Assembly (NCBI GenBank): GCA_903846945.1
Contig: CAINCE010000073.1
Span: forward strand, 13,626 to 77,625
Length of the DNA: 64,000 nucleotides
Origin: an uncultured bacterium
Lineage (GTDB): Bacteria; Patescibacteriota; Minisyncoccia; Phycocordibacterales; PALSA-1337
Direction of reading: 5' to 3'
Part shown: piece by piece, positions 9,757 through 26,785 of the stretch
Numbering within the stretch: position 1 is the stretch's first letter
Layout of the letters: every line of letters starts with the position of its first letter
Notes under the pieces: model-generated
Seen by the model: the letters and a program-made list of their open reading frames with translations, nothing else
Databases searched by the model: none
Told to the model about the DNA's origin: nothing
Position numbers and translations under genes: made by a program

Positions 9757-9840
9757 GAAAATGATATTAGCATGAATGTTTGGTGAGCGCAAATTTGTAT
9801 GCAATGCTACAATATCCTCATGTCGCACAATATTTCCGAA

Positions 9841-10743
9841 ATGAAACAGCAGTTTCTCGAATACATCGAGATAGAAAGAGGTCGTAGTGTAAAGACTGTG
9901 GAGAATTACGATCGATATTTAAGAAGGTTTATCGACCATACAAAGGTAAAGAAGGCTGGCGATGTCACTCCAGAGATGGTCCGTGAATTCAGATTGTGGC
10001 TAAATAGGCAGTCAACGGGCAATATCCGTTCAACGGGTGACACATTGAAGAAGAAGACTCAGAACTATTATTTGATCGCTCTACGGGCATTTCTAAAGTT
10101 TCTCGCAAAGAAAGGTGTGAAGTCGTTAGCTCCCGAGCAGATCGAGTTGGCAAAGGTTGGTGATAGATCACTCGATCTCATCACAACTGGAGAATTGGAG
10201 AGACTCCTCAAAGCTCCAGAAGGCAACGAACTACAGGTACTCCGAGATAGGGCCATTCTCCAACTACTATTTTCAACAGGTTTACGCGTATCTGAGCTCA
10301 CTTCCCTCTCATCTGACCTCGATCTTTCATCGGACGAATTCACCGTGCGAGGTAAAGGAGATAAAACCCGTGTGGTGTTCATGTCTGATGATGCGAAAGA
10401 TGCCCTGAAGAAGTATTTGGCGAAGCGTACTGATGTGGACGATGCGATGTTCGTGCGTATTCCAGGAAATGAGATGCGTGGTGTGAAAGGTGGAGCAGGG
10501 CTGACTCGTCGATCTATCGAAAGGATAGTAAAAAAGTATGCAGTGAAGGCTGGAATCTCGAAAAAAGTCACTCCTCATGTCATGCGTCACATGTTCGCGA
10601 CAGATCTATTGCGAAATGGTGCTGACCTCCGTTCTGTGCAAATGCTCCTCGGTCATGCGAATATCGGGACGACGCAGATATATACGCACGTGACTGACAG
10701 CGAACTCAAGAGAGTTCACAAGCAGTTCCATAACAAGAAGTAA
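9841..10743 (+). CDS. tyrosine recombinase XerC/XerD-like
   Basis: C-terminal [39 protein letters not shown] (R..H..R..Y catalytic residues); start taken at [10 protein letters not shown]. Confidence 0.85.
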
Positions 10744-12653: not shown

Positions 12654-14141
12654 CTAATTTACATTGTGTTTACTATGTATTTCGGAGATGAGTTTTTCTT
12701 CTTCTAACTCTTTTCTTTCTTTTCCCTTCTCGGACAATGCTCGCAAATCGGTTTCGGAAAGAGAATTCATTTCTTTTGTGCGCTTGGTTAGGTATTCTTC
12801 TGTATTCAATTTCGGATCGTCCAAAACCTCTTCTAGTAGTGCACTCAAGATCATCCCGATCTTTGGTCCAGGGGTTATGTTGAGAACCTGCATGATTCCC
12901 TTCCCATCAATCTTCAACATAGTCACAGATACTGGATCCATGAGAGCTTGATCTATCATCGCCTTGTATTTGCGTAGTCTGAATGGGTTTTCCTTGGGTC
13001 TACCAGTGCCTATGCGGTCACAAGCCCTCAGATTCATCAGGTCCCAGATGTTTTCACGGCCAACATTGACCACCATACGACGGACCGCGGAAAGACTAAT
13101 CATTGCTGTATCAGCGAAAAACATATGCCAACGCACGAGTTTAGTCACTTTTTCGATGGTTACACGTGAAAACTTCATTCTTTCGAGGATTTTACGTGTT
13201 TCACGTGAACCAACTACTTCGTGGCCGTAAAACGTCGGTTGCTGTGTTTCACGTGAAAAACCCTTTGTCTGTGGCTTTGCAATATCATGAAATAGAGCCG
13301 CCAAACGGATTTCTAGGTCCCATTTACGGTCTGCGGCATGCTGGACACTACGGATGAGGTGGTTCCAGACGTCATATGTGTGAGCTTGTGGCTGTTCGAC
13401 CCCAATTCCCCTCTCGAGTTCTGGAACGATGTATTGTAATAGGCCAGCGTCATGTAACATCAAGAGTCCATTCATAGGACTGTCGGACGTGATGATCTTG
13501 GTGAATTCATCACGAACTCGCTCTACCGAGACACCTTTTATGAACGAGTTCTGGCTCTGTATAGCCTTCATGGTATCTCTGTTACACGTGAAATCTAATT
13601 CTACAGCGAGTCGGATGGCACGCATCATGCGTAGGGCGTCCTCGTTGAAGCGGTCACGAGGCGCACCTACTGTTCTGATAGATTTGTCCTTTATGTCTGC
13701 AAATCCTCCGTATAAGTCGATTATGTCCTTTATAGCCCCATTGGAAAGAGACACCGCGATCGCATTTACTGTAAAGTCGCGTCTCATGAGATCGTCCTCT
13801 ATTTTGTCGCTAAAGTTCACTACATCTGGATGTCTGCGGTCTGAATACCCTTTTTCCATACGATATGGTGTGACTTCGATGTTTTTCAGTGTTTTTTCTT
13901 CAGTTTCCTCATTTATCACGCAAACCGTTCCAAAAGTGTTCTCGTATACAGTTTTTACGAATAATGCCTGGATCTGCTCTGGTTTTGCGTTGGTCGTAAC
14001 ATCCCAGTCTTTTGGCGCTCTACCTAAGAATAGATCACGAACGCATCCTCCGACGAGATAAGCCTGAAAACCGCCCTTTTCAAGGGTTTCCACGACAGTG
14101 ATGACTTCGGATGGAATTGTACTGCTTTTTACGGCTTTCAT
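12654..14141 (-). CDS. cca: CCA tRNA nucleotidyltransferase with HD domain
   Basis: 495 aa; FQAYLVGGCVRDLFLGRAPKDWDVTT polymerase-beta head plus HD domain (LFHDIAKP). Confidence 0.9.
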   Translation of the reverse strand: MKAVKSSTIPSEVITVVETLEKGGFQAYLVGGCVRDLFLGRAPKDWDVTTNAKPEQIQALFVKTVYENTFGTVCVINEETEEKTLKNIEVTPYRMEKGYSDRRHPDVVNFSDKIEDDLMRRDFTVNAIAVSLSNGAIKDIIDLYGGFADIKDKSIRTVGAPRDRFNEDALRMMRAIRLAVELDFTCNRDTMKAIQSQNSFIKGVSVERVRDEFTKIITSDSPMNGLLMLHDAGLLQYIVPELERGIGVEQPQAHTYDVWNHLIRSVQHAADRKWDLEIRLAALFHDIAKPQTKGFSRETQQPTFYGHEVVGSRETRKILERMKFSRVTIEKVTKLVRWHMFFADTAMISLSAVRRMVVNVGRENIWDLMNLRACDRIGTGRPKENPFRLRKYKAMIDQALMDPVSVTMLKIDGKGIMQVLNITPGPKIGMILSALLEEVLDDPKLNTEEYLTKRTKEMNSLSETDLRALSEKGKERKELEEEKLISEIHSKHNVN

Positions 14142-14219
14142 AGCATTATTCTACAATAATTTGGGATTTTTTCCAATGTGCGCTATGATTTACTCGTTCT
14201 GCATTTGTCGCGCATATAT

Positions 14220-14291
14220 GCCCTCGTGGTGAAATGGATATCATTACTGTCTTCGGAACAGTCGTTGGGGGTTCGAATCCCTCCGGGGGCA
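14220..14291 (+). tRNA. tRNA-Arg (anticodon TCG)
   Basis: Hand-folded 72-nt cloverleaf: acceptor GCCCTCG/CGGGGGC, D-loop with GG, anticodon stem ACTGT/ACAGT, loop CTTCGGA, T-arm GGGGG-TTCGAAT-CCCTC, discriminator A; no encoded CCA (ACAA follows). Confidence 0.75.
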
Positions 14292-14471
14292 CAAATCAAT
14301 AGGTCCGCTAGCGAGCCAACTGCTTGGCTCGCGTCTATGGATTCGAAAAGTCTGAGCATATTTCCAGCCATTTGGGTGGCTGGAAATGCGAAGACTGTAC
14401 CGTTCCCGTAGGGAAAGAATCCCGTAAGGAGGCGGGGTCGCAGGCGAGCATAGCAATGCGAGACCTGTGAC

Positions 14472-14490
14472 CGAATCCCTCCGGGGGCAC
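14472..14490 (+). repeat. 19-nt exact copy of the tRNA-Arg 3' end (cgaatccctccgggggcac), here followed by CA giving CACCA
   Basis: Identical to 14274..14292; no cloverleaf can be built around it, so it is a fragment or att-like direct repeat. Confidence 0.7.
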
Positions 14491-14787
14491 CAAAGGCCAC
14501 TTCTTGTTTCCTAATTCGCTTTGCTCATAAGGAAACAATAGACTTGTCCCGTAATAAGCAGATTTTGAATGATTCATGGCTATGTTAAGCCACATATTGA
14601 TAATTCTTAAAATTTGTCAATTTTACGGCTAAGGTAAGCCCTGATAAGTGGTTTTTTCCTTATTAGGGGACTTGTCTAATGTCGGGCACCCATTTCTTTC
14701 ACGTGAAACATCGAATCACTAGGTTTCATAATATGGCCCAATTATTCCCTCTTGAAAGTGAACAACTGCTAGTATATAATACAAGGC

Positions 14788-15525
14788 ATGCGAAAAGATA
14801 GAGAACAAGCTACAGTCCTTAGGAAGTCTGGGATGTCTTACTCAGACATCATTGCTCGTATGAGTGTACCTAGGAGTACTTTGTCGAAGTGGTTCCATGA
14901 CCAGAAGTGGTCAAATGATATCGCAATAGAAAGTGCTACTAGGGCAAGGAATAGTGGGGCGATCAGGTTCGCTGTTTTGAACACGGTTCGAAAGGGTCGT
15001 CTAGATAATCTACGCAAACAGGCGAGGCAAGATGCATTGCTAGATTTCGAGGATTTGAAATATCATCCACTATTTCTCGCTGGAGTTATGGCGTACTGGA
15101 TGCATGGTGATATAAAGTCCCCAAATAGGGTAAGTTACTCGAGTACTGATCCTGACAAGATCAGACTATTCAAATCGTTCCTAGAGAAGATCTGTGGCAT
15201 TGAGAAGCCTAAGGTGTGGATCAACCTCCCGAGAGGGAATTTAACATTTTTGGCAGAGTCATTTTGGGCAGAAAAGTGCAGTATGAGTGTGGATGACCTT
15301 GGAAAAACTATGATTTCTGGCGGATTTGATGGTTTTCCCAGTGGAAACACAACGATTTCAACTGATTCAAAGAGACAAAGGGTCATAAAGATGGGGAATA
15401 ATCACGGAGTTTGCAATATGGTTGTAAATAGTGCATACTTGAAAAATAAATTTTTGAAATGGGTGGAACTTTTGAAGGATGATCTGCTGAATGAGAGGTA
15501 TTTGAACGATGTTTCACAAATTTAG
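14788..15525 (+). CDS. hypothetical protein with N-terminal resolvase-type HTH
   Basis: 245 aa; LRKSGMSYSDIIARMSVPRSTLSKW HTH; weak LAGLIDADG-like stretch FLAGVMAYWMHGDIK (not confident). Lies between tRNA-Arg and tRNA-Gly. Confidence 0.4.
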   Translation: MRKDREQATVLRKSGMSYSDIIARMSVPRSTLSKWFHDQKWSNDIAIESATRARNSGAIRFAVLNTVRKGRLDNLRKQARQDALLDFEDLKYHPLFLAGVMAYWMHGDIKSPNRVSYSSTDPDKIRLFKSFLEKICGIEKPKVWINLPRGNLTFLAESFWAEKCSMSVDDLGKTMISGGFDGFPSGNTTISTDSKRQRVIKMGNNHGVCNMVVNSAYLKNKFLKWVELLKDDLLNERYLNDVSQI

Positions 15526-15578
15526 ACACGGTTCGTAGTGTAGTGTGTGAAAATCGAGTTCGAGAGTTGAAAATTCAT

Positions 15579-15649
15579 GCGGGTATAGTTTAATGGTAGG
15601 ACGCGTCCTTGCCAAGGACGAGTTGGGAGTTCGATTCTCCCTACCCGCA
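15579..15649 (+). tRNA. tRNA-Gly (anticodon GCC)
   Basis: 71-nt cloverleaf: acceptor GCGGGTA/TACCCGC, anticodon stem CGTCC/GGACG, loop TTGCCAA, T-arm GGGAG-TTCGATT-CTCCC. Confidence 0.8.
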
Positions 15650-15796
15650 CAATGATTCGTGAGCAGGCATGTTATGCCTGCGAATGGAACATCATTGAGA
15701 CGAGGGAGGGAGAAGCGAACGCCGGAGCGTGCGAGGCTAGTAAGCCGAGCCGCGAGGCGGTGCCCAGACCGAACGAGCGGGTAGCGAGTGAGAGTC

Positions 15797-15814
15797 GCGG
15801 GCGATTCTCCCTAC
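15797..15814 (+). repeat. 18-nt exact copy of the tRNA-Gly 3' end (gattctccctacccgcac)
   Basis: Direct repeat of 15632..15649; a second 13-nt repeat aatgattcgtgag occurs at 15650..15662 and 15869..15881. Confidence 0.7.
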
Positions 15815-16100
15815 CCGCACTACTTCGCAAATCAGCTAATCGCTGATTTGCTTCGAAGTGCAGGCACAATGATTCGTGAGGAATAGATGTCCTAAATAAA
15901 TGGCTTAAATTCGTGGAGTAAGGGACAGAACTGTGGATAAGTCTGTGGATAGTGTGTATAAGAGACGAATAGTATGGCTTATTATCGTCTTTTAGGTATT
16001 TTTATGCACCGCCTGCAAGCTAGCGAAGGAAAGGGATATTGGATAGTATGGCTTTATTGCAGAGCATTGAGCAATTACAAATTAATAGACCTTCAAAGTC

Positions 16101-16478
16101 ATGAGTACAAGATCAAAAGGAAATATCGGGGAAAATGTCGCTTGCATATTCCTTGAGAAAAGGGGATTCAAGATCGCTGTGAGGAATTATATGAAGAAAT
16201 GGGGTGAAATAGATATTATTGCTATAAAAGACAAAGTAGTCCATTTCTTTGAAGTAAAGAGTGTGACTTTTAACCCTGTGCATGACTCTGTATCTCATAA
16301 AGCTGAGGATAATGTTCACGGATTCAAAGTTAGACAGATCCGTAGGATGGTCGAGACATTCCTAGAAGAGACGAACAGGGGACTCGATGCGGAGTTTCAT
16401 TTTCATGTATTGTGTGTGTATTTGAACATGGAGACTAGGGGCGCGCGAGTGAAATGGATCAAGGATTTGGTTCTCTGA
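16101..16478 (+). CDS. YraN (UPF0102) family endonuclease
   Basis: 125 aa; GENVACIFLEKRGFKIAVRNY...GEIDIIA...VHFFEVKS matches YraN/UPF0102. Confidence 0.75.
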   Translation: MSTRSKGNIGENVACIFLEKRGFKIAVRNYMKKWGEIDIIAIKDKVVHFFEVKSVTFNPVHDSVSHKAEDNVHGFKVRQIRRMVETFLEETNRGLDAEFHFHVLCVYLNMETRGARVKWIKDLVL

Positions 16479-16570: not shown

Positions 16571-16643
16571 CGGGGCGTGGTGTAACGGCTAACATGCCTC
16601 TTTTGGGAAGAGGTGACTCCGGGTTCGAATCCCGGCGCCCCGA
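16571..16643 (+). tRNA. tRNA-Pro (anticodon TGG)
   Basis: 73-nt cloverleaf with C1:G72 pair typical of bacterial tRNA-Pro; anticodon loop TTTGGGA; T-arm CCGGG-TTCGAAT-CCCGG. Confidence 0.8.
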
Positions 16644-16708
16644 CAAGGTAGATAATGTAAAATTGAACTTCCTCCACACTCTCCTACGCCCCCTCCGTCG
16701 CCGAGGCT

Positions 16709-17342: not shown

Positions 17343-17413
17343 GCGGGATTAGTTAAATGGTATAATAACAGTTTTCCAAACTGTGGTTGGGAGTTCGATT
17401 CTCCCATCCCGCA
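17343..17413 (+). tRNA. tRNA-Gly (anticodon TCC)
   Basis: 71-nt cloverleaf: acceptor GCGGGAT/ATCCCGC, anticodon stem ACAGT/ACTGT, loop TTTCCAA, T-arm GGGAG-TTCGATT-CTCCC. Confidence 0.8.
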
Positions 17414-17497
17414 CTATCTAAATCGTATTTAAAATTTGAATACAAAAAAGCCGATCCTGATGACCGGTTTGCGTCTCAGCTTTCGTAAGCCCATGAA

Positions 17498-19471: not shown

Positions 19472-19581
19472 ATGCACAGAAACGGTGGATATGGGATGAG
19501 TATTTACTCGCCGCTATCGTTTGACAATTTAGGGGCATTATATAGGTGGCCCATCAAACTACCAGTTCGGAAAGAAAAGTT

Positions 19582-19965
19582 ATGAAGAAATTCGTTTTTA
19601 TTATGCAGCATACTCCCACTGCTGAACAGGTTACAAGGGCTAGTGAGTCCGGCCAGGTGGTTGAACTCTCGGACAAGAAGTTGCTGTTGGTGCCAGATGA
19701 CCTGTATCTCGATTACGCGTGGTTCGTAAGTCGGGCTGCAGATATTGTTGCGGCGGTCGGCGGCATCTGCCCCGGGGATACGGTACAGGTCATGGGCCAG
19801 CAGCAGTTGGCGATGGTCGTAAACGCCCATGCGCGGAGTTGTGGTGCGGAGCTGGTGGAGTCGGTGACTCCACGGACTTCGAAGGAGGTCCACCAGCCGG
19901 ACGGCACGGTAAAGAAGGAGACGGTATTCTCCTTTGCTGGATTTCGGAAACTCCACAACTACTAG
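19582..19965 (+). CDS. small hypothetical protein P1, paralog of 26786..27172
   Basis: MKKFVFIMQHTPTAEQ...LLLVPDD...GAELVESVTPRTSKEVHQPDGTVKKE; about 60% identical to the minus-strand paralog at the far end of the island; GC-rich. Confidence 0.5.
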   Translation: MKKFVFIMQHTPTAEQVTRASESGQVVELSDKKLLLVPDDLYLDYAWFVSRAADIVAAVGGICPGDTVQVMGQQQLAMVVNAHARSCGAELVESVTPRTSKEVHQPDGTVKKETVFSFAGFRKLHNY

Positions 19966-20005
19966 TTTGTGGACAGGTTGAAAGACCTGAAAAAACTTTC
20001 CTCCA

Positions 20006-20020
20006 CGCATTGAGTCAATG
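20006..20020 (+). terminator. hairpin GCATTGA-GT-CAATGC immediately upstream of HHR1
   Basis: Perfect 6-7 bp palindrome 3 nt before the ribozyme. Confidence 0.4.
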
Positions 20021-20022
20021 CG

Positions 20023-20075
20023 TTGCTTCTCGGAATGTGTATTCCGACTGATGAGTCTGAAAGGACGAAAAGCAA
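20023..20075 (+). ncRNA. hammerhead ribozyme, type III (HHR1)
   Basis: TTGCTTC / stem I TCGGAAT-GTGT-ATTCCGA / CTGATGAG / stem II GTCT-GAAA-GGAC / GAAA / AAGCAA; stem III 6 bp; predicted cleavage after UUC at 20029. Confidence 0.8.
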
Positions 20076-20153
20076 AATTCAGGACTTTAATATATTGGTT
20101 ACATACAATATTCTTCATAGTAACTTGGCGATATCATTTGTCGACAGCTTACT

Positions 20154-20342
20154 ATGAAGAAAGTCGTAGACTCCATCAGTGCAGCAGCTGCTGAAAAAGC
20201 AGCTGAGGCGACGAAGGAAGTACTCAGTGGGTTCAAGCCTGCTGAGAGGCTTCTCCTAGTCGGTCTCGCACTGATCGGACTCGCCATCATTTCTGCAGAT
20301 GGCGAGAAAGAAAAGCAGAAGGGTTCTAGGAAATCCCACTAA
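20154..20342 (+). CDS. small membrane protein, hypothetical
   Basis: 62 aa; one TM helix (LLLVGLALIGLAIISA); directly downstream of HHR1. Confidence 0.4.
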   Translation: MKKVVDSISAAAAEKAAEATKEVLSGFKPAERLLLVGLALIGLAIISADGEKEKQKGSRKSH

Positions 20343-20346
20343 ACAC

Positions 20347-20368
20347 GCTCGTATTCCTAGATACGAGC
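20347..20368 (+). terminator. hairpin GCTCGTAT-TCCTAG-ATACGAGC immediately upstream of HHR2
   Basis: 8-bp perfect stem starting 5 nt after the stop of 20154..20342. Confidence 0.45.
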
Positions 20369-20370
20369 AA

Positions 20371-20418
20371 CTGTCTCGGAATATCGTTCCGACTGATGAG
20401 TCTGAAAAGACGAAACAG
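20371..20418 (+). ncRNA. hammerhead ribozyme, type III (HHR2)
   Basis: CTGTC / stem I TCGGAA-TATCG-TTCCGA / CTGATGAG / stem II GTCT-GAAA-AGAC / GAAA / ACAG; stem III ACAG:CUGU; cleavage after GUC at 20375. Confidence 0.8.
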
Positions 20419-20478
20419 AGTAGTTCTTCACATATTGTATTCATGTAGCTTGCGTCTATATCCTTGGTCGCAGACTAC

Positions 20479-20850
20479 ATGAATACAAACAACAAAGAGG
20501 TAGCCGCAAACTCTATAAAAGCGGTAGAGGCGTACAGGGCACAGATCGCCAATCTGCAGAGTCAAATCTGCAAATTGGAAGAGGCGGCCGCGGTCGCCAT
20601 GGAGACACTCGTCGGGGCGAAGGTTGCCGACGGCTGGAAGAAGTTTGAATACTATTCCAGCTACTACGGGTCGCATAGTGAGCTCGGTGAGGGTGATGAG
20701 GAGAGGACGCTCCTCTTTCACCCCAGTGTGGACTTGTCCACATGGGACGGTGTGTCGTTCTCGCATGGCCATCGTGGCCAGAGCGAGGAAAACGGGCGGT
20801 TCTGTAAGTGGCTCTCCGGTCTCCCGGAAGGTCACTACATCGAACTGTAG
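20479..20850 (+). CDS. hypothetical protein
   Basis: 124 aa from MNTNNKEV; coiled-coil N-terminus; follows HHR2; GC-rich. Confidence 0.4.
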   Translation: MNTNNKEVAANSIKAVEAYRAQIANLQSQICKLEEAAAVAMETLVGAKVADGWKKFEYYSSYYGSHSELGEGDEERTLLFHPSVDLSTWDGVSFSHGHRGQSEENGRFCKWLSGLPEGHYIEL

Positions 20851-20851
20851 T

Positions 20852-20956
20852 GATTTACCTGCTGTAACAGGTTGATTTAACCGGACGAGTCTTTACAGAG
20901 ATTCCTCCACTTCATTGAGCCGTATGAGTGAAAGATTCTCGTCGGTTCATAGAGTT
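20852..20956 (+). ncRNA. conserved structured RNA element, copy A (unclassified)
   Basis: About 105 nt near-identical to 22629..22733: hairpin ACCTG-CTGTAA-CAGGT; hairpin GACGAGTCTT-TACA-GAGATTC..; palindrome CTCAATTGAG; hairpin ATGAG-TGAAAGATT-CTCGT. Covarying base pairs between the two copies. Confidence 0.55.
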
Positions 20957-20978
20957 CGTTAAATGGGAGAAAAAAATT

Positions 20979-21140
20979 ATGGGTATGAACCTAGGTGGTG
21001 TGAAGGTGAAAGGCGGTTCTGGTGGGAAGCGGGGACACTCCGGGATGTGTCATTGGATGCCGACCGAGCAGGTAAAGGTAGTATCCAAGAAGGCCCGCCG
21101 CCGTGAAGATAAGTGCCTGGTTAAGCCTTCGGCCGAGTGA
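20979..21140 (+). CDS. small basic hypothetical protein
   Basis: 53 aa MGMNLGGVKVKGGSGGKRGHSGMCHW...; GGGAG 12 nt upstream. The track's 20928 GTG start lies inside the conserved RNA element. Confidence 0.3.
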   Translation: MGMNLGGVKVKGGSGGKRGHSGMCHWMPTEQVKVVSKKARRREDKCLVKPSAE

Positions 21141-21315
21141 TCGGCTTAGTAACACCTCTAACCAAGGTTGCCACAAAATTCCTCCTTCGCTCTAATGAGC
21201 TATGGAGGGACAAGCCGGTGGTGTAAATCAAGGTAAAGAGTTTTGTCCCCGTCTTTCTCAGAAAAGACGGAGAGCCTAGAGGAAGCAGAGCCTCACCGAG
21301 ATATATCTCTCGGTT

Positions 21316-21388
21316 CTGTCTCGGAATATCGTTCCGACTGATGAGTCCCTCTACATCCTATTCGGGGTGAGAGTGAAGGACGAAACAG
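21316..21388 (+). ncRNA. hammerhead ribozyme, type III with extended stem II (HHR3)
   Basis: CTGTC / TCGGAATATCGTTCCGA / CTGATGAG / extended stem II GTCC-CTCT-A-CATCC-TATTC-GGGTG-AGAG-TGAA-GGAC / GAAA / ACAG. Upstream hairpin CCGAGAT-ATAT-CTCTCGG at 21295..21312. Confidence 0.75.
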
Positions 21389-21410
21389 AGTTGGTCTTTA
21401 AAATCAAATT

Positions 21411-21674
21411 ATGCCAATGTTAAAAACCAATGTGGTGCCGTACAACAAGACGGCGAGCTGCAACCGGCAGCCAGTAAATGTCAACCATCAGCAGAAAATC
21501 GTGGTAGTCAATACACGGTGCGGTGATGGTCAGGAAGGGAAACACCAGACCCATCTGGACGCCATGGTCAAAGTCGAGGCCGAAAAGGGATTCAAAATCC
21601 TTCAGGCATCGACGGTGATCGTGCCAGTGAGTGCTGGGCTGCTCTTCTCTACGACGGTGGTGTTGGTGTCGTGA
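21411..21674 (+). CDS. hypothetical protein
   Basis: 87 aa; follows HHR3 after a conserved acagagttggtctttaaaat spacer. Confidence 0.35.
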   Translation: MPMLKTNVVPYNKTASCNRQPVNVNHQQKIVVVNTRCGDGQEGKHQTHLDAMVKVEAEKGFKILQASTVIVPVSAGLLFSTTVVLVS

Positions 21675-21765
21675 GCGGTGCAGGGTAGACAAGGCTGATG
21701 GTTCCTAGTAATCATTCTCGACCACGGAGTGCAGTGGTAGACGTGATCGCCCTACGGTAGTGGGT

Positions 21766-21796
21766 GCGTAATTCCGAGGGGAAGCTCCTCGGCGCC
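21766..21796 (+). repeat. motif GCGTAATTCCGAGGGGAAGCTCCTCGGCGC (hairpin)
   Basis: Near-identical copy on the minus strand at about 25266..25296; both sit between a gene end and a hairpin+HHR. Confidence 0.5.
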
Positions 21797-21814
21797 TGGT
21801 GAGCGGAAACTACT

Positions 21815-21834
21815 GGAAAGATGCAAATCTTTCC
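21815..21834 (+). terminator. hairpin GGAAAGAT-GCAA-ATCTTTCC immediately upstream of HHR4
   Basis: 8-bp perfect stem 2 nt before the ribozyme. Confidence 0.45.
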
Positions 21835-21836
21835 TT

Positions 21837-21909
21837 CTGTCGCGAAGTTGAACTTCGCCTGATGAGTCCCTCTACATCCTTTTCGGGATGAGAGTGAAGG
21901 ACGAAACAG
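21837..21909 (+). ncRNA. hammerhead ribozyme, type III with extended stem II (HHR4)
   Basis: CTGTC / stem I GCGAAGT-TGA-ACTTCGC / CTGATGAG / same extended stem II as HHR3 / GAAA / ACAG; followed by the same acagagttggtctttaaaat spacer. Confidence 0.8.
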
Positions 21910-21926
21910 AGTTGGTCTTTAAAATT

Positions 21927-22622
21927 ATGAAGCACGTAAATATGACCCCGCGGCAGTGGGGATTCAGTATTGAACCGTTTCCGGCCTTCCGGTCGGAGAT
22001 AGTCTATGGTCGGCACAAGCACGACCAACAGTTTCTCCCTGTTAAGGGAATATCTCCCGTTACCACATTTACTGTGGAAGGCGGAGGAGTCGTTCTCTAC
22101 AAGGGAACGGACTGTGTTCTGGCGCAAAAAACAGTCGCAGACTTTGATGATGTTCAGCGGAAAAAAGTCCCGTTCACATTGTCGCATGCGATATTCACGG
22201 TATCACCGCAGACTCTGCCGGAGAATCGCTTCCAGGTCATCAAGACCAAGGAGAAGGGAACCATCATGGTTGTACCTGGCGAGGACCTGACCAGACGATG
22301 CCTACTGTTCGCAGAGTGCAAGGGTGGGTTTCGTGGCGGCGTTGCACTCATCGGTGGGAGCAATTCAGCTGACGTCATCAAGAAGTGTCATGCCGGAGAT
22401 GCTTGCGATAGCTTGATGGCTGTTATCGCAATACTAGAGGTGGATCAGTCTATCGCATTTCATTCCTGGGGCAGGAGGAAGGACGAAGTCTACCGCCATG
22501 CTTGGGATGGTGAGACCATCAAGGTCGAGCATTATTCCATAGACGAATGGAACGTCAGGAGTGAGCTCATCACTGCCGATGTGGCACAGGCTCATGAAGC
22601 TCTTCCGGGCGACGGAAGTTGA
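21927..22622 (+). CDS. hypothetical protein
   Basis: 231 aa from MKHVNMTPRQWG; follows HHR4; no motif recognised. Confidence 0.45.
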   Translation: MKHVNMTPRQWGFSIEPFPAFRSEIVYGRHKHDQQFLPVKGISPVTTFTVEGGGVVLYKGTDCVLAQKTVADFDDVQRKKVPFTLSHAIFTVSPQTLPENRFQVIKTKEKGTIMVVPGEDLTRRCLLFAECKGGFRGGVALIGGSNSADVIKKCHAGDACDSLMAVIAILEVDQSIAFHSWGRRKDEVYRHAWDGETIKVEHYSIDEWNVRSELITADVAQAHEALPGDGS

Positions 22623-22628
22623 TAGTGG

Positions 22629-22733
22629 TATTTACCTGCTGTAACAGGTTGATTTTAACCAGACGAGTTTTTACAGAAACTCGTCTACTCAATTGAGCTG
22701 TACGAGTGAAAGATTCTCGTCGGTTCATAGAGT
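22629..22733 (+). ncRNA. conserved structured RNA element, copy B (unclassified)
   Basis: See copy A; hairpin here is GACGAGTTTT-TACA-GAAACTCGTC (the C:G pair in A is U:A in B) and ACGAG-TGAAAGATT-CTCGT (U:G in A becomes C:G in B). Confidence 0.55.
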
Positions 22734-22762
22734 GTTCGGTGAAATTTTGCAAAAAAGAAAAT

Positions 22763-23026
22763 ATGTTGAAAATTCCAGTGAATGGTGCGGAGATTCAAGA
22801 GGTCGATGGGGTCGAGTACCTTGTTGCGCGACTGGACAAGACACTGGTGTGTTCAGACTACGTAGACGAGTTGAGGAAGGGTCGTCCCGTAGTTGTGCCT
22901 AGCTCCAAGCGCGGGCATTTGACGACTCAGCTCAAGGCAGGGAACATCTCCACCCGGCAGAAGTCTATGGTTGCCGGACAGTGGATAGCCTTCATACCAT
23001 GTGAAGCGAGGGAGTTCAAGTCCTGA
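22763..23026 (+). CDS. hypothetical protein
   Basis: 88 aa MLKIPVNGAEIQEVDGVEYLVARLDK...; the track's 22706 GTG start lies inside RNA element B. Confidence 0.35.
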   Translation: MLKIPVNGAEIQEVDGVEYLVARLDKTLVCSDYVDELRKGRPVVVPSSKRGHLTTQLKAGNISTRQKSMVAGQWIAFIPCEAREFKS

Positions 23027-23375
23027 TCGTAGGAAAGACTTCCAAAGGATCACTCTAACCTTCTCAAAAGAGTGTATTGTCACCGTAAGAACAATGGTGA
23101 GAGATTTCAAAACACCGTACGAAAGTGCGGTTTTTTCATAGTGAATAAGAGCGTTTTTTACATTGTCCCAAAAACGGAACCACCCCCTTTCGGGGGTTCT
23201 GTAAGCTTTATTGCCGTGAATATTACAGTGAATGCGTGCAAGTTGTGCTAGAGGTATCTTATGTGCTAACATATGCATACACAGAGACATTATCCGAACT
23301 GTCACCGGACGGTGGCTTGGTTGGGACAACCAACATAGGTAGTGTATCGGGAAATCGCCCTTCGGGGCTTTTTCT

Positions 23376-24032
23376 TTATTTAAATCGCCATTCATCCTCG
23401 ATATGTTTCCGAATGATCTTTTTGTAAATAATTCCATCTTGTTTGTTACCCTCATAACTCCTCCGTATGCTCCCAGCGATCATATCAGCCAATTGGATGA
23501 GCACGTTATCTTTTGAGTCTGAAAACTTCAAATTTGAAATCACCTTAATTCCATTTGAGTTAAGAGATTTTCGTAGGTATGATGAAAAATTCCTCCGGAA
23601 AGCCCTGTCTCCACTACCATCAAGCTTGATCTTTGCTTCTAGAATACTCATATCACTGTGTTTCAGTAACATCTTTATGGAATAACTATAAAATGAATTC
23701 TTGTCATTTTTTAACTCATCACTATGTAGGATGGTCTTGTCTATAACCAGTGTTCTAACTTTAAATGCAAACACGTTGATAGTATTCATGAAACCTAGAC
23801 GGACTTTTTTGTTTGACTTGTTAAACTTGAATTCCATCGTATCTGGAAATCCGATACTTCTCCTAAACTCTTTTATGGCCACGGCAACCTTTTCGGCTTC
23901 TAACGGATCGTCGAATATGACAGCGGCAATAACAAAAATCTTGCTCGATCCTCTTTCGAATTTGAATCCAGCATCACCGGAATCATCGATGAATACTAAA
24001 GTTTGCGAATTTTGTGTGTGTTTGCTAAGCAT
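23376..24032 (-). CDS. DUF3800 family protein
   Basis: 218 aa; LVFIDDSGDAGF at the N-terminus and LIQLADMIAGSI near the C-terminus are DUF3800 hallmarks; AT-rich gene inside a GC-rich island. Confidence 0.65.
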   Translation of the reverse strand: MLSKHTQNSQTLVFIDDSGDAGFKFERGSSKIFVIAAVIFDDPLEAEKVAVAIKEFRRSIGFPDTMEFKFNKSNKKVRLGFMNTINVFAFKVRTLVIDKTILHSDELKNDKNSFYSYSIKMLLKHSDMSILEAKIKLDGSGDRAFRRNFSSYLRKSLNSNGIKVISNLKFSDSKDNVLIQLADMIAGSIRRSYEGNKQDGIIYKKIIRKHIEDEWRFK

Positions 24033-24400
24033 ATCGTGGAACTATTATACTCTCGAAATATTGATTGGCTAGTGAGGACAAAAAATCCCCACGAGGCTAC
24101 GGATATAGACATAGGACTTAGTCGAGAAGCGGTGTTTAGAGGAGAGAGATTTTGCAATCACTCACACCGCCTCGCTACATAATCCGATATCATACCCATA
24201 GCCCCGCGGGGACTCGTGTTTAGACACTAATAATAACTCAATGAGCCTGTAAACCTCTAAATTTATAGGCTCAATAAAGTGGAGATTTTCTTGAAATCTC
24301 CAGAAAAGCACCGAGAAACCAATCTCGGAAACCATTATCGCTCCACTCTGCGATCGAGGAAAGTTTTAGAGGGTGACTTTCAACCTATTGACGTCAGCTA

Positions 24401-24940
24401 TTATACCGACGTCTTCTGGAGCCGCGCCATCGCGTGCTCCCACGCGACCGCAGCAGCGGTCGCATCGTACATGGGGTGGTGCGCCACCCCCGCGAACGGC
24501 ACCGCGATGCCGTTCTTTTTGTTATATGCGTCCACTGAGGACGCGTCCTCGCTCAGTGCGAGGAGCGCCGTGCCTAGGTCATGTAGGCACGGATAAGGGC
24601 CCTCGAAGGCCCGTTCGTCGAGATTTCTCTCGACGCAGCGGCGGAACAGCCCCGATTCCACGGGGCTACCGCAATGGGCGATCACAGTCGCCCCTACCTT
24701 TTGGGCCTGCCAAAAGGCCCAGAAGGCCTCTTCCAACTCCTCCGAAGAGGAGTGGGAGACCGGCATCCCCGCCAGAGCGGGGAGAACGTTTGCACGCACC
24801 CAGCCGTCCGACACGGCTGAGTCGGCGATCCGGCCCTCGAAGCGGGCCGTTTCCACACCGTCCACCCGGACGGTCGCGGCGATTGCGAATGACGGGCCAT
24901 ACAGCCCGTCAACTTCTGCGTCACAACTAAAGATTTTCAT
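24401..24940 (-). CDS. DEDDh-type 3'-5' exonuclease (DnaQ-like fold), putative
   Basis: 179 aa, GC-rich; IFSCDAEVDGL (Exo I D-x-E), AHCGSPVESGLF (Exo II-like), HHPMYDATAAA (Exo III H-x4-D); GAGG 13 nt upstream of ATG. Confidence 0.5.
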   Translation of the reverse strand: MKIFSCDAEVDGLYGPSFAIAATVRVDGVETARFEGRIADSAVSDGWVRANVLPALAGMPVSHSSSEELEEAFWAFWQAQKVGATVIAHCGSPVESGLFRRCVERNLDERAFEGPYPCLHDLGTALLALSEDASSVDAYNKKNGIAVPFAGVAHHPMYDATAAAVAWEHAMARLQKTSV

Positions 24941-24954
24941 AATATTCCTACCTC

Positions 24955-25135
24955 TCTATTCGTCCAACAATCTCTTTCTAATCACACATCGTGCGACTAC
25001 ATCCCTCCTCCAGGAATGCTCAACTGAGAAAAAAGACCACCGAAGTTTCGATTGGTAGAATGTATTCATTATGTTCGAGCTTATCTTCTGTAATGATAAT
25101 GAATACGTTCCACCAATCGATAGTAGTAGAAACAT
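24955..25135 (-). repeat. 181-bp conserved 5' leader, copy 1, upstream of the DEDDh exonuclease gene
   Basis: About 95% identical to 27186..27366; contains a roughly 24-bp imperfect hairpin (cgattggtggaacgtattcattat ... ataatgaatacattctaccaatcg). Confidence 0.7.
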
Positions 25136-25146
25136 ATGATATTTTT

Positions 25147-25197
25147 CTGTTTTCGTCCTTTCGGACTCATCAGTCGGGATACACATCCCGAGAACAG
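25147..25197 (-). ncRNA. hammerhead ribozyme, type III (HHR5, minus strand)
   Basis: Minus-strand read: CTGTTC / TCGGGA-TGTGTA-TCCCGA / CTGATGAG / GTCC-GAAA-GGAC / GAAA / AACAG; stem III 5 bp; cleavage after UUC. Preceded on the minus strand by hairpin GGAGAAGCTTTTGGTTAAAAGCTTCTCC (25199..25226). Confidence 0.75.
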
Positions 25198-25335
25198 TGG
25201 AGAAGCTTTTAACCAAAAGCTTCTCCATTTAACCTATGAAGTATTTTCCGCGTGCCTCATCATCACGCGCCGGGGAGCTTCCCCTCGGAATTACGCGGTA
25301 TGTTTATAGTCTTACCGATAAGACTTGAAGTGCTA

Positions 25336-25671
25336 CTACGGCAGCAATTGGTTGCCGTGTTGCTCACGGAGCTTGGCCATTCGTTTGGCCACCCTCCTCT
25401 GCATCGCCGCATACCTGTGCGGCGGTTCGGTGAATCCGGGAACTTCCCGGTTATGTGCGAGGTCGTCGCACATCTGCTCCACCATGATGGCAAGGATGAA
25501 CTCCTTGTCATCATGGGTGAATTCCTGGGACTCGCCCAGGTCCTGTGTCCAAACCAAGTATGGTCGCACTAGCGACTCATACTGGCTGCCGATACTGATT
25601 CCGGCGGCAGTACCCAAATTTTCTGATGTATTCATGCAACCTATTTCCGATCCTTCAGAAACAAATTGCAT
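25336..25671 (-). CDS. hypothetical acidic protein
   Basis: GC-rich ORF; start uncertain (the track's N-terminus MEKLLVKSFST is a translated palindromic hairpin); DKEFILAIMVEQMCDDLAHNREVPGF. Confidence 0.3.
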   Translation of the reverse strand: MQFVSEGSEIGCMNTSENLGTAAGISIGSQYESLVRPYLVWTQDLGESQEFTHDDKEFILAIMVEQMCDDLAHNREVPGFTEPPHRYAAMQRRVAKRMAKLREQHGNQLLP

Positions 25672-25812
25672 GAATACATCTAAGACTCTAAGAGCCAACC
25701 TCCTGGGAGACCGGCTCAATAAAGTGGAGAAGCTTTTAACCAAAAGCTTCTCCATTTAACCTTGCGACGATTTATCCAGTAACGGAAAGGAAGTCGCTGT
25801 TCCTTTGTTGTA

Positions 25813-26424
25813 TTAGGTCATTGCCCGTATAACGGACAGTGAGACGTCTCTGGGGGCGTCACTCTCTCCGACGGGATGCAACCCACCCCTCCAACTCTCG
25901 AGGGCTTCGGTGTACATCCCATGTTTGGTGGGATGATACACATGCGCGGGCTCGCCTCGCAAGAAAGCCCCGTTGGTCCACCAGAATAAAATTAGGGAAA
26001 TGCACTCTTTGTCTTTGTGTGCTTTCCCGTATTCTGATTTGTACCCAGAATCGATAAGGAGCTGCCAGTCAATGTCTGGTAGCTCCTCGACCAACCATTC
26101 CGGGTGGCCGTGATCTTCCCATTGGATTAACTCGTCCAATGGTAGGAAGATGTCTTTCTGAAACACTAGTTTCAGAAAGTAATTCTGTAAATTTTCCGAG
26201 CACAACCGCGTGCTCGCTTCTAGGAGTTGCCGTTGCAACTCCTTGTTCAGCCAGTAGGAGATCTTTCCGTCTCCTGACTGGATGTACCCCTTACAGGTCA
26301 GGCGGTTCGCGCCTGACCTGTAGGTCGTTTCACGAGTCCCCATGCCATCGGGGGACTCGTATTTAACTACTGTTTGCGTGCCGAACGGCTCAACGTCGGC
26401 ACGCAACATTCTCATTTGCGACAT
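25813..26424 (-). CDS. hypothetical protein
   Basis: 203 aa; AAGGAGG 9 nt upstream of ATG on the minus strand; no motif recognised. Confidence 0.5.
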   Translation of the reverse strand: MSQMRMLRADVEPFGTQTVVKYESPDGMGTRETTYRSGANRLTCKGYIQSGDGKISYWLNKELQRQLLEASTRLCSENLQNYFLKLVFQKDIFLPLDELIQWEDHGHPEWLVEELPDIDWQLLIDSGYKSEYGKAHKDKECISLILFWWTNGAFLRGEPAHVYHPTKHGMYTEALESWRGGLHPVGESDAPRDVSLSVIRAMT

Positions 26425-26785
26425 TTTAATGCCCTCCTTCTAGGGCATGTTTCCACAACTTGTTTCGCATGTGGATTGCGGTTCGAGAAGATCATTCTCT
26501 ATCAACCGTCAACATGGAAGTTGTTGGCTGAATAAAGCGGAGAAATTTACGTATTCTCCAATTGACTTTCGTCACGGCAAGCAACCACGCCTGCAACCCG
26601 ATCTAGGATTGACCTCCATCCTTGATCATTATAGGAGTATTCAGATTTGTCTTGCGACAGGTCTCATACACAAAACCTTTTTACTTTTTTTGACACGACC
26701 AGTTTGTCCCTCCGAAGCCTGTTGGGGCGAAGGAGGAATTTTGTCGCAACTATAGGCTATCCCTATAGGTTTTTACGTCCAGAGC

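Follow-up and report, generated by a model that had tools for sequence, protein, structure and literature searches.

Two short non-coding elements, E1 and E2, stand directly behind tRNA-Arg(TCG) and tRNA-Gly(GCC) in the window, by which we mean the whole 64,000-nt stretch of DNA analyzed. On a slight balance of probability they are RtT-like non-coding RNA elements of the tRNA 3' trailer, carried on the tRNA strand. Covariance-model matches place them in two related structured families, and each element terminates in a copy of the 3' end of its own tRNA gene.

tRNA genes, repeated ends and elements

Both tRNA genes are intact. tRNA-Arg(TCG) (14220..14292; like the other features of the two loci, on the + strand) was called by ARAGORN and scores 58.6 bits against the Rfam tRNA model; tRNA-Gly(GCC) (15579..15650) was called in the same way, with 68.1 bits. 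The final 19 nt of each gene (copy X1; 14274-14292 and 15632-15650, respectively) recur exactly downstream as copy X2, which runs from T-loop C56 to the base after the discriminator (X2-Arg, 14472..14490, then CA; X2-Gly, 15802..15820). The tRNA-Arg 19-mer, CGAATCCCTCCGGGGGCAC, occurs exactly twice within the 64-kb window and has zero matches in any shuffled sequence; its second copy with the following CA reads ...GCACCA, the gene itself ...GCACAA. The tRNA-Gly 19-mer is CGATTCTCCCTACCCGCAC; the other tRNA-Gly gene has a match to it with 2 mismatches. Start to start, the repeats are spaced by 198 nt (Arg) and 170 nt (Gly). The DNA bounded by each pair is non-coding, 138-179 nt (179 and 151 nt of unique sequence), and the ORF list contains no credible ORF in either stretch. 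ARAGORN and the Rfam tRNA model call no tRNA at either second copy.

At tRNA-Gly, X1 and the next 13 nt form a 32-nt repeat unit (15632-15663), and a 17-nt nested repeat, GCACAATGATTCGTGAG (repeat D3; 15647-15663 and 15864-15880), joins the last 4 nt of tRNA-Gly to 13 nt of its original trailer. The DNA after 15880 aligns with the tRNA-Gly flank of the related genomes L008 and L007, and 15864..15880 is the ancestral tRNA-Gly/flank junction. A 43-nt hairpin (15821..15863; inverted repeat I1, arms 15814-15836 / 15842-15864) has GCAC on either side; deleting 15821-15867 regains a perfect copy of 15632-15663, and the hairpin looks like a later insertion that broke up the second 32-nt repeat.

A preliminary description of this DNA had already recorded the exact tRNA-Arg repeat, followed by CCA where the gene has CAA, and a single 245-aa HTH ORF (14788-15525) between the tRNAs, and had asked for confirmation that only the first copies are tRNAs; all three points hold. 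It also saw that the tRNA-Gly end recurs, but at 15797..15814 and over 18 nt, which is 5-6 nt off because the copy occupies 15802-15820 (19 nt). The nested repeat that it gave as 13 nt exists and is 17 nt long, and the hairpin that it placed at 15816..15857 is present with the arms given above.

E1 (14293..14490) is a structured element of 198 nt (MFE -95.4 kcal/mol, z = -6.35 vs. shuffles). Its leader contains an ‘R hairpin’ read from the sequence, GCGAGCCAA-CUGC-UUGGCUCGC (14311..14332), which with its CUGC loop is also found in L008, L147, L212, L259, L303 and L167. The antisense segment GGATTCGAA (14339..14347), recognized in the sequence, in the MFE fold and as helix P1 in the model alignments, is the reverse complement of the tRNA-Arg T-loop and T-stem 3' strand, and its partner is 14472-14478. 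Two modules follow. The type-A module (14336..14426) comprises P2 (AGUCUGAGCAU...GCGAAGACU), GUAC and a degenerate P3/T-arm-like hairpin, and is matched by model R2 at 14336-14426 with 53.2 bits (E = 3e-10). The type-B 3' module (14429..14471), also present in L007 and L008, comprises GAGGCGGGGUCGC, a hairpin with an AGCA loop, and GUGAC; model R1 matches 14336-14480 with 42.5 bits (E about 1e-10). E1 is a composite of the two.

E2 (15651..15820) is a structured element of 170 nt and ~70% GC that coincides with a GC island (MFE -77.5 kcal/mol, z = -5.82 vs. shuffles). Its MFE fold begins with a trailer hairpin (AAUGAU..GCAGGCAU-guu-AUGCCUGC..AUCAUU; 15651..15696), followed by the antisense segment GGGAGGGAGAA (15704..15714; sequence, MFE fold and P1 of the model alignment), which is complementary, with one bulge, to UUCUCCCU-CCC of the tRNA-Gly 3' copy. 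The type-B core (15708..15810) has CGAA-CGCC-GGA, a P2 with tandem G.A pairs, GAGGCGG and P3; R1 matches 15708-15810 with 36.1-36.2 bits (E about 1e-8 to 1e-10), the core can be aligned with the rest of the family, and R2 has no match in E2. E2 is a diverged type-B copy. The window carries single units only, with a 17-nt stub of a further unit behind E2. Sequence prediction places a promoter-like site at 14161-14189, upstream of tRNA-Arg, and finds no terminator-like site in 14100-16150.

The gene order around the elements is conserved. The order Xer - ExoIII - CCA-adding enzyme - tRNA-Arg - HTH gene - tRNA-Gly - YraN - tRNA-Pro - tRNA-Gly is kept from Xer to tRNA-Gly in about 30 related Paceibacterota genomes, with or without repeats. 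The HTH gene, which lies outside the elements and encodes an N-terminal transposase-type HTH and a LAGLIDADG/WhiA-like domain, has orthologs there with 32-82% identity. The elements themselves are sporadic: E1 is absent at this position in L007 and L006 and has an orthologous element in L008 and L009, while E2 is absent behind tRNA-Gly(GCC) of L007, L008 and L010. In L007, tRNA-Arg directly abuts the flank that is found after the second copy in the window. A 70-nt unit differs in copy number between L009 and L008, and tandem units occur in L009/L008, L133, L188, L192, L198 and L227. Exact-repeat duplications number about 13 among roughly 120 tRNAs, and R1 or R2 finds matches in about a dozen of 33 related genomes.

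Two structured families behind tRNA genes

R1 (type B) was built from 33 metagenome copies only, with the window excluded, and R2 (type A) from 6 type-A copies of other genomes. R1 describes P1, GCC/GGC, P2 and a P3 with a G.U pair and a bulged A; R2 describes P1, P2, GUAC and a UGUAA hairpin. Both families have a three-way-junction core: the type-B consensus is ..CGAA-AGCC-GGA-[P2]-GAG-GCGG-GG-[P3: GUCGC..bulged A..GUGAC], and the type-A consensus consists of P2, GUAC and the small UGUAA hairpin. An element opens at its 5' side with a variable trailer, which frequently includes a hairpin, and continues with a GC-rich hairpin whose loop is CUGC. Next come the antisense segment, complementary to the T-loop and the 3' strand of the T-stem and in fuller copies also to the 3' strand of the acceptor, and then the conserved core. 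At its 3' end the element repeats the local tRNA exactly, starting at C56 and running through the tRNA 3' end, and this repeat pairs with the antisense segment.

The type-B fold is supported by covariation. Compensatory changes occur in 17 of 27 pairs (33 sequences), paired cells make up 91.3% vs. 69.3% after shuffling (129 distinct sequences), and the covariation score is 0.532 vs. 0.155 for shuffled alignments, none of 500 shuffles scoring as high; slid controls scored ≤0.09. The G.U pair of GUCGC/GUGAC is present in 116 of the 129 sequences and is far commoner than the same pair reversed, which makes the fold specific to the tRNA-sense strand. Junction nucleotides and the bulged A are invariant, with the proviso that conservation at 22 positions is circular because the metagenome sample was picked by a fixed 22-nt pattern. 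Five Elusimicrobiota genomes have flanks that defy alignment but an identical tRNA and X2, and the differences within the element's hairpins are compensatory; comparison of these genomes argues that the structure of the elements is under selection.

The metagenome scan found at least 120 loci, 87 of them no more than 150 nt behind a tRNA, with 17 isotypes represented; the hosts of the tRNA-linked loci are Patescibacteria and Elusimicrobiota (at least two uncultivated phyla). Each of these 87 pattern-selected instances has a same-strand tRNA upstream, and the median distance from the end of that tRNA to the core motif is 63 nt. Over at least 12 nt, the 3' copy is identical to the instance's own tRNA in 54/87, compared with 2/417 for tRNAs of other isotypes, and an antisense match of at least 9 nt to the own tRNA is found in 65/87 vs. 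32/412 in the control. Copies found by the models rather than the pattern show the same tRNA linkage. Neither family is present in Rfam 15, and cmscan of the window region and 10 canonical loci reported no known RNA family except tRNA. Hammerhead (CUGAnGA..GAAA), the RNase P P4 region, tmRNA, Y-RNA-like and ZTP structures were considered by eye; each misfits, and cmscan reported none of them. For CPR bacteria, word searches of the literature turned up no relevant account of a tRNA-trailer element.

Expression, mobility and rival readings

As RtT-like RNAs, the elements would be read through from the tRNA promoter. Cleavage at the tRNA 3' end would create the 5' end of the element, the tRNA-like 3' end would let tRNA end-maturation enzymes set the element's own 3' end, and what is released would be a stable RNA some 150-200 nt long, which is what has been reported for RtT. 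In the DNA, the repeated tRNA ends render the locus prone to recombination. They would give rise to unequal crossing-over, precise loss and tandem expansion, and exchange with the tRNA gene would keep the copies identical to it; crossing-over and exchange together would explain the patchiness, the tandem arrays, the composite make-up of E1 and the nesting of repeats behind tRNA-Gly.

Several observations sit less well with an RNA. Of 84 canonical units, 24 have a terminator-like hairpin with a T-run between tRNA and element, so read-through is not assured everywhere; in 10 of the 84 a terminator-like site follows the element. CUGC, AGCA and C-GNA-G triloops make up most of the hairpin loops, GNRA being very scarce and UNCG absent, and A-CTGC-T is the commonest loop (21 cases) apart from the core junction itself. 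Such a repertoire suits stable DNA hairpins better than typical structured RNAs; as a guide to an RNA or a single-stranded DNA role, these loop statistics are suggestive only. In fuller copies the antisense segment reaches the discriminator and CCA and forms a perfect palindrome with the tRNA end, which looks like the outcome of a DNA-level copying process and counts against the RNA reading, as does the fact that a generic fold or end-processing signal needs no match of copy and antisense segment to the local tRNA.

A possible, though rather unlikely, alternative is a non-autonomous mobile element of ~140-260 nt that inserts at or just behind tRNA genes with the help of an enzyme whose gene lies elsewhere. 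As a folded single strand it might act through its antisense:copy stem, which would mimic a duplex tRNA end (integron attC sites and the folded attP of CTX phage follow this logic), and its conserved structure would serve propagation rather than the host. Filled and empty sites between relatives and the sporadic presence noted above are consistent with mobility, as are tandem whole units, copy-number differences between near-identical strains, nested and composite copies, the recurrence of one core behind 17 isotypes in two phyla, and the DNA-like loops; one crossover of a small circle would produce just the arrangement X - leader - anti-X - core - X. However, no integrase, transposase or reverse transcriptase adjoins E1 or E2, no recombinase, transposase or reverse transcriptase recurs within 3.5 kb of 120 other instances, and clustering of 752 ORFs around 121 instances yielded housekeeping neighbors only, the largest cluster (6 loci) being homologs of the 245-aa HTH protein. 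Copies that share a genome are not recent bursts of near-identical sequence; they are old, have diverged and carry compensatory changes. A new tRNA target would demand ~40 nt of matched change.

BLAST searches of phage and plasmid collections found no element copies. The tRNA-Arg 19-mer has 18 matches in viral contigs, 17 inside complete phage tRNA genes and one at a locus edge, where no call is possible. The type-B pattern has 23 viral-contig matches, of which L167 alone is genuine; this also counts against mobility, the context of L167 being chromosomal-looking, with housekeeping-type neighbors (acetyltransferase, epimerase, cytidine deaminase, GDSL lipase) and no tRNA in the 3.3 kb covered. 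Two further patterns were discarded: the 110 viral-contig matches (L012-L121) to GCCGGAGCGNGCGN{0,30}GAGGCGG were set aside, going by the composition of the pattern, as GC-rich coding noise, and the 12 matches to TTGAGC..CCAANNNGGGTACTG were, on inspection, coding noise in every case.

Decidedly improbable, in our estimate, is a cis-acting switch on tRNA maturation, in which the antisense segment would pair with either the real tRNA 3' end or the downstream copy. Pairing with the tRNA would unfold it and lengthen the trailer hairpin, and the conserved core would choose between the pairings, e.g., by binding a protein or small molecule. This is the sole reading that demands a local-tRNA match of all three partners, as is observed, and in fuller units the tRNA end, trailer hairpin and anti-acceptor segment form one continuous palindrome; the invariant junction nucleotides and bulged A are as expected of a binding site, and RtT, which has been linked to tyrT transcript processing and the stringent response, is classed as ‘Cis-reg’ in Rfam. 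The proposal is a purely structural inference, though; during transcription the tRNA folds first, and the antisense segment is short (7-9 nt) in many copies including E1.

The preliminary description took the repeats for decayed att sites of integrase-bearing islands or prophages, the DNA between them being an island remnant, with the HTH gene as the cassette. We consider this very improbable. In its favor, elements that integrate at tRNAs classically have an identity block of this kind, a direct repeat reaching from the T-loop to the 3' end; a tyrosine recombinase gene is present 4 kb upstream (9799-10743); and, as L007 demonstrates, the repeats do bound DNA that is present in some genomes and absent in others. 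That recombinase, however, is Xer-like and syntenic in relatives with and without elements; none of the 120 instances has an integrase or cargo beside it, and the viral, phage and plasmid collections searched contain no attP-like partner. The HTH gene is syntenic in the roughly 30 relatives whether or not they have repeats, and the repeats flank only non-coding DNA. Nor is that DNA decaying, because it is conserved and covarying. The proposed comparison of orthologous loci shows both filled and empty sites, the repeats being sporadic among relatives instead of universal. What survives is the point that these loci were repeatedly recombined, which the composite E1, the 70-nt difference between L009 and L008 and the tandem units elsewhere make clear.

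Least probable is a T-loop intron or split tRNA with the second copy as true 3' exon: the 5' part to U55, about 200 nt, and C56 to the 3' end can formally be read that way, and the second Arg copy has an encoded CCA, but at each site an uninterrupted tRNA (58.6 and 68.1 bits, respectively) finishes with the first copy, the insert is absent in relatives, group I and group II intron models have no match, and we know of no bacterial mechanism of T-loop splicing.

The models verify at least 130 copies, which span at least two phyla and follow tRNAs of 17 isotypes. What was an anecdote becomes a comparative data set, and the RtT design is seen behind two other tRNAs in a bacterium of the Candidate Phyla Radiation (Patescibacteria). 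The junction nucleotides, bulged A, invariant G.U and tRNA-matched arms offer concrete positions to mutate in E. coli and to use in looking for a binding partner. For annotation, tRNA-end duplicates should not be taken automatically for att sites of islands or prophages, and displaced copies of tRNA ends may mislead tRNA and island finders. An unlikely extension is that the tRNA-specific match of antisense segment and copy is itself functional, as a widespread riboswitch-like gate on tRNA maturation or a new kind of self-templating mobile element that encodes no enzyme. In the first case a sensor core would decide whether the antisense segment captures the tRNA's own 3' half; in the second the element would copy its target's end on both its sides; and in either case the 45-year-old puzzle of the tyrT repeat and RtT would become one enterobacterial case of a general tRNA-linked system.

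Comparison with RtT and other known systems

tRNA-targeting att sites share with the present loci the T-loop-to-3'-end direct repeats, the intact tRNA with a displaced fragment and the presence/absence polymorphism, but here integrase, cargo and attP are lacking and the DNA between the repeats is a conserved, covarying structure. Integron attC sites and CTX-phage attP(+) have the order core site - insert - inverted core site - structured spacer - core site. The present elements resemble them in this order, in the primacy of structure over sequence and in bulged stem bases; attC and attP(+) differ in being recognized by IntI or XerCD and in having central regions that are not conserved in sequence, whereas the present elements conserve the sequence of the core, have a tRNA end in the place of the ‘site’ and show no link to a recombinase.

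Like REP/BIME, pneumococcal BOX and MITEs, the elements are short, GC-rich, hairpin-forming, modular intergenic units that occur in mosaics and arrays. Those repeats, however, are dispersed intergenically without a copy of the neighboring gene's end, while the present elements sit in the tRNA 3' flank in tRNA orientation, with tRNA-specific sequence on both sides of the core. A MITE- or IS-derived origin was rejected: the two ends of the insert (aaatcaatagg.. / ..cctgtgac) do not form an inverted repeat, and both the only inverted repeat, which is tRNA-derived (antisense vs. copy), and the duplication of 19-44 nt speak against a MITE. tmRNA, viral tRNA-like structures and mascRNA likewise have an acceptor/T-arm-like 3' end that could recruit tRNA-processing enzymes. 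Theirs is a structural mimicry of one tRNA type; by contrast, the present elements carry an exact copy of the neighboring tRNA, replace the T-loop with the core and often extend the pairing through loop, discriminator and CCA.

The closest likeness is to RtT. The 178-bp repeats of E. coli tyrT have been known since 1978 and RtT RNA since 1991; to our knowledge RtT has no accepted function and had seemed a one-off oddity of one enterobacterial tRNA gene. Its gene is rttR, and in Rfam it is classed as ‘Cis-reg’. The E. coli tyrT/tyrV RtT units score 133-137 bits with RF00391; GGGGAAGGAU...AUCCUUCCCC close the fold, and the units end in AAUCCUUCCCCCACCACCA, the last 19 nt of tRNA-Tyr. The RNA has been linked to tyrT transcript processing and the stringent response, and a part in the amino-acid starvation response has been suggested. 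RF00391 has no match in the window at its gathering threshold (45 bits), none at E≤10 over 14150-16000 and none at E≤1 in the 10 canonical loci, and R1 gives the E. coli units a non-significant 2-3 bits; common descent is unproven because each model misses the other family.

The design is nonetheless shared. RtT, too, immediately follows a tRNA gene and shares its strand (as E1 does from 14293 and E2 from 15651), and it ends in an exact ~19-nt copy of the tRNA 3' end; a 5' segment (GGGGAAGGAU in RtT, where the Rfam structure line shows the helix; P1 here) pairs with this copy and closes a branched, GC-rich fold. GAGCG..GCGAG and C-GCA-G hairpins in the RtT fold are a further trait in common, RtT units stand in tandem, as do units at some loci outside the window, one RtT unit lies between duplicated tRNA genes, and the ‘..GAU-GAGAA’ junction of RtT is also found in a subset of type-B copies. 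The present elements differ from RtT in having another core and, often, an added anti-acceptor segment and CUGC hairpin; and whereas RtT is known only from tRNA-Tyr of enterobacteria, the families described here accompany 17 isotypes in Patescibacteria and Elusimicrobiota.

Duplicated tRNA ends and their genomic setting

Four tRNA genes were called in the window by ARAGORN, with concordant results from the Rfam tRNA model: tRNA-Arg-TCG (14220-14292), tRNA-Gly-GCC (15579-15650), tRNA-Pro-TGG (16571-16644) and tRNA-Gly-TCC (17343-17414). As the preliminary description stated, the 19-nt end of tRNA-Arg (CGAATCCCTCCGGGGGCAC, 14274-14292) recurs at 14472-14490, with no third site in the window and 0 matches in shuffled sequences, and the second copy ends in ..GCACCA where the gene has ..GCACAA. 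The window's tRNA genes lack an encoded CCA, the displaced Arg copy being the exception. The end of tRNA-Gly is also duplicated (CGATTCTCCCTACCCGCAC, 15632-15650 and 15802-15820), the second copy having been placed 5-6 nt too low, and the nested repeat nearby exists but is 17 nt long, not 13 (GCACAATGATTCGTGAG, at 15647 and 15864). We refer to the non-coding elements closed by these copies as E1 (14293-14490) and E2 (15651-15820); the reported hairpin is present (arms 15814-15836 and 15842-15864). The repeat pairs enclose 179 nt or 151 nt of unique non-coding DNA, and the inter-copy segments are GC-rich islands (window GC, 43.6%) that fold far better than shuffled sequences (z = -6.35 for Arg, -5.82 for Gly). 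The feature is real and non-random.

Sequence past 15880 aligns with the tRNA-Gly flank of two relatives (L008 and L007), which identifies ..GCAC|AATGATTCGTGAG|GAATAG as the ancestral junction. The original direct repeat was 32 nt (15632-15663), comprising the 19-nt tRNA end and a further 13 nt of the trailer. A 43-nt hairpin (15821-15863), bracketed by GCAC/GCAC, now interrupts its second copy, and deletion of 15821-15867 yields a perfect 32-nt direct repeat of 15632-15663; the hairpin is apparently a small palindrome that was inserted separately. Repeats also extend beyond the tRNA end in L133 (44 nt) and L196 (whole trailer hairpin repeated), which fits duplication of, or crossing-over between, units of tRNA end plus trailer rather than a fixed recombinase core.

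Among the relatives compared, the repeats are sporadic, not universal at the same positions. caaaaggccacttcttgtttcc, the window sequence after the second copy, directly abuts tRNA-Arg in L007 and L006 (77% orthologue), while L008 and L009 (70% orthologue) have an element in E1's position that ends in a 24-nt copy. L010 has no element there, and tRNA-Gly(GCC) stands without one in L007, L008 and L010. In a scripted comparison of 36 related loci, ~13 of roughly 120 tRNAs (Arg, Gly-GCC, Pro and Gly-TCC, differing among genomes) had a duplicate of their own 3' end 56-202 nt further downstream, and the repeats always match the local tRNA.

The gene order Xer-like recombinase, exonuclease III, CCA-adding enzyme, tRNA-Arg, HTH gene, tRNA-Gly, YraN, tRNA-Pro, x, tRNA-Gly is conserved in the fetched relatives (HTH orthologues 32-82% identical). 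The HTH gene, once taken for a cassette, is thus a resident gene, and the repeat pairs enclose non-coding DNA. Homologues of its 245-aa product (14788-15525) are named Candidatus Paceibacterota or Taylorbacteria. The protein has a transposase-type HTH together with one LAGLIDADG/WhiA-like domain, its gene stays between tRNA-Arg and tRNA-Gly throughout the clade, and its homologues are the commonest ORF family near type-B elements (6 loci, including L255).

Several other features were observed in this region. In the window, as in L006-L010 (the relatives examined in detail), the gene adjoining tRNA-Arg in divergent orientation is that of the CCA-adding enzyme (12654-14141, minus strand). A ~130-bp block (~14540-14669), which shares an intergenic region with E1, is missing from L007 at the same point (cataaggaaacaat | atgtcgggcaccc); its imperfect terminal inverted repeats (AGACnnGTCCCnTAATAAG) mark it as a MITE-like insertion. 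A pair of DnaA-box-like 9-mers (TGTGGATAA / TGTGGATAG, ~15932-15952) precedes the YraN/UPF0102 gene and is conserved in L007, L008 and L010 despite differing surrounding intergenic DNA. Rfam DUF3800-IX RNA matches 23284-23352 (plus strand; 43.1 bits, gathering threshold 36.8), within a stretch (~19500-27200) that has several GC-rich islands and in which an identical contig (L001) encodes a DUF3800 protein; this stretch, which lies downstream of tRNA-Gly(TCC), is a possible foreign island.

Element types, covariation and distribution

The inserts sort into two related types, A and B. Both start with a GC hairpin, often GCGAGCCAA-CUGC-UUGGCUCGC, followed by the reverse complement of the local tRNA's T-loop and T-stem 3' strand (GGGAGAATCGAA for TTCGATTCTCCC; GAGGATTTGAA for TTCAAATCCTC). 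Because it matches the complement of an asymmetric loop, this segment is a genuine antisense sequence rather than a copied T-stem 5' strand. In type A, helix P2 (..UUGAGC..CCAA.. or AGUCUGAGCAU..GCGAAGACU) precedes GUAC, a small UGUAA-loop hairpin and the tRNA copy; type B reads AGCC-GGA-P2-GAG-GCGG-GG-P3, with P3 being GUCGC..GUGAC, and then the copy from C56. In L124 (3300-3330) a perfect palindrome (GGAGGGATTCGAATCCCTCC), in which the antisense segment abuts the copy and the core is absent, occupies the place of the type-B core of L007 and L008; this is a precursor that lacks a core or else the product of a precise core deletion. L009 (3830-3968) has one 70-nt unit (a small hairpin plus GCGAGTCCTGCCAGCAGGCAGGAACTCGTGACCGAATCCCTC) more than L008 (3900-3968), and the two contigs encode an identical 282-aa protein; the difference is a recent copy-number change of an element sub-module.

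For 33 copies, RNAalifold recovered P1 (antisense segment paired with copy), a GCC/GGC helix, P2 and P3, with compensatory changes in 17 of 27 pairs, an invariant G.U pair and a conserved bulged A. The type-B covariance model (R1), built from 33 metagenome copies only, has two matches in the 64 kb (14336-14480, 42.5 bits; 15708-15810, 36.2 bits) and no others; it also matches 11 related loci and 130 copies across 100 metagenome loci. Its metagenome alignment has 91.3% paired cells (69.3% shuffled) and a covariation score of 0.532 (0.155 shuffled; 0 of 500 shuffles as high; slid controls ≤0.09). The type-A model (R2), built from six copies with the window excluded, matches 14336-14426 (53.2 bits) and found nine further independent copies; given the short calibration, E-values are rough. 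Together these matches make E1 composite: its type-A module either sits inside a type-B 3' module or is joined to one. E2 is a type-B copy that has diverged. Across five Elusimicrobiota genomes whose flanks do not align, tRNA-Arg(CCG) and the copy downstream of it are identical, and compensatory changes occur in the element hairpins. This indicates selection on the fold, contrary to the proposal that the inter-repeat DNA had decayed.

A metagenome scan with the fixed pattern GAAAGCCGGAN{16,46}GAGGCGGGGTCG, which defines the sample, returned at least 120 loci (GC 0.29-0.69). Same-strand tRNA ends lie 29-95 nt (median 63 nt) before the core motif in at least 87 instances, and at least 17 isotypes are represented among the 87 matches listed. 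Within those listed, the sequence after GUGAC is identical to the tail of its own tRNA over at least 12 nt in 54 (2 of 417 for tRNAs of other isotypes), 65 have an antisense match of at least 9 nt in the trailer (against 32 of 412), and 25 have an anti-acceptor segment. Copies found by model, not by pattern, likewise lie behind tRNAs, with 12-21-nt matches to them. High-GC loci are assigned to Elusimicrobiota on the basis of an AlaRS (73-75% identical to named MAGs), and the taxonomic range of the family is based on two anchor points. In two Elusimicrobiota loci (L230, 1769-1865; L258, 4860-4956; both minus strand) an inverted second type-B copy directly follows the first, so that the elements face each other. 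The only genuine matches in 'viral' contigs are two type-B copies, one truncated, in L167 (the contig of L233; 2835-3187, minus strand), which follow a GDSL-lipase gene and are accompanied by repeated units containing GGGCAAATCCC (GC 0.50; no tRNA within the stretch examined).

Competing explanations

We favour, with modest confidence, an RtT-like trailer RNA that would be made in one transcript with the tRNA. There is a promoter-like site at 14161-14189, no terminator-like site was found in 14100-16150, and the strand-specific G.U pairs agree with transcription of the tRNA strand. The element ends would be set by tRNA-end processing; the antisense:copy helix holds the fold. In the DNA itself, the repeated tRNA ends would then be open to unequal crossing-over, precise deletion and expansion, and exchange of sequence with the tRNA gene is also plausible. 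Such events would account for the empty sites and the arrays, for the extra 70-nt unit that separates L009 from L008, and for the composite make-up of E1.

We retain, as an unlikely alternative, a trans-mobilised, possibly single-stranded, mobile element, since a terminator-like hairpin precedes the element in 24 of 84 units, the hairpins have CUGC, AGCA and C-GNA-G loops instead of GNRA or UNCG ones, generic processing makes no demand for tRNA-specific matching, and in fuller units the tRNA end, trailer hairpin and anti-acceptor segment form one perfect palindrome. Clustering of the 752 ORFs neighbouring the listed loci disclosed no recurrent integrase, transposase or reverse transcriptase, and similar elements were absent from the plasmid and cultured-phage collections searched. 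A three-partner switch acting on tRNA maturation is improbable. Conventional decayed att sites are more doubtful still: the island or cassette first proposed was wrong in its main points, there being no recurrent integrase near the listed loci, a resident HTH gene and conserved inter-repeat DNA. T-loop introns are hardly credible, as both ARAGORN and the Rfam tRNA model call only the first copies as tRNAs, in line with the original expectation, and the latter calls none at the second copies even at E ≤ 10.

Comparison with E. coli RtT

The E. coli tyrT locus reportedly contains 178-bp repeats, each with 19 nt of the tRNA-Tyr 3' end (Egan & Landy 1978; Rossi et al. 1981). The RtT model (RF00391) finds four units in the fetched tyrT locus (133-137 bits), one of them separating tyrT from tyrV and the other three following tyrV. 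Each runs GGGGAAGGAU-GAGAA...GUAAUCCUUCCCCCACCACCA; the antisense segment comes first, then a branched, GC-rich core, then the last 19 nt of the tRNA, which pair back, and the core has GAGCG..GCGAG and C-GCA-G hairpins of the same kind as those in the new elements. RtT RNA is described in a passage of one article as the product of one tyrT operon repeat unit (PMC3318445), and a statement in a preprint gives it a role in tyrT transcript processing and possibly in the stringent response (bioRxiv 10.1101/2024.07.17.603846). Membership at the sequence level fails, with no RF00391 match to the new elements and only 2-3 bits for R1 on the E. coli units, whereas the architecture is common to both. 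The window feature belongs to a class of RtT-like tRNA-trailer elements that is conserved and unannotated.
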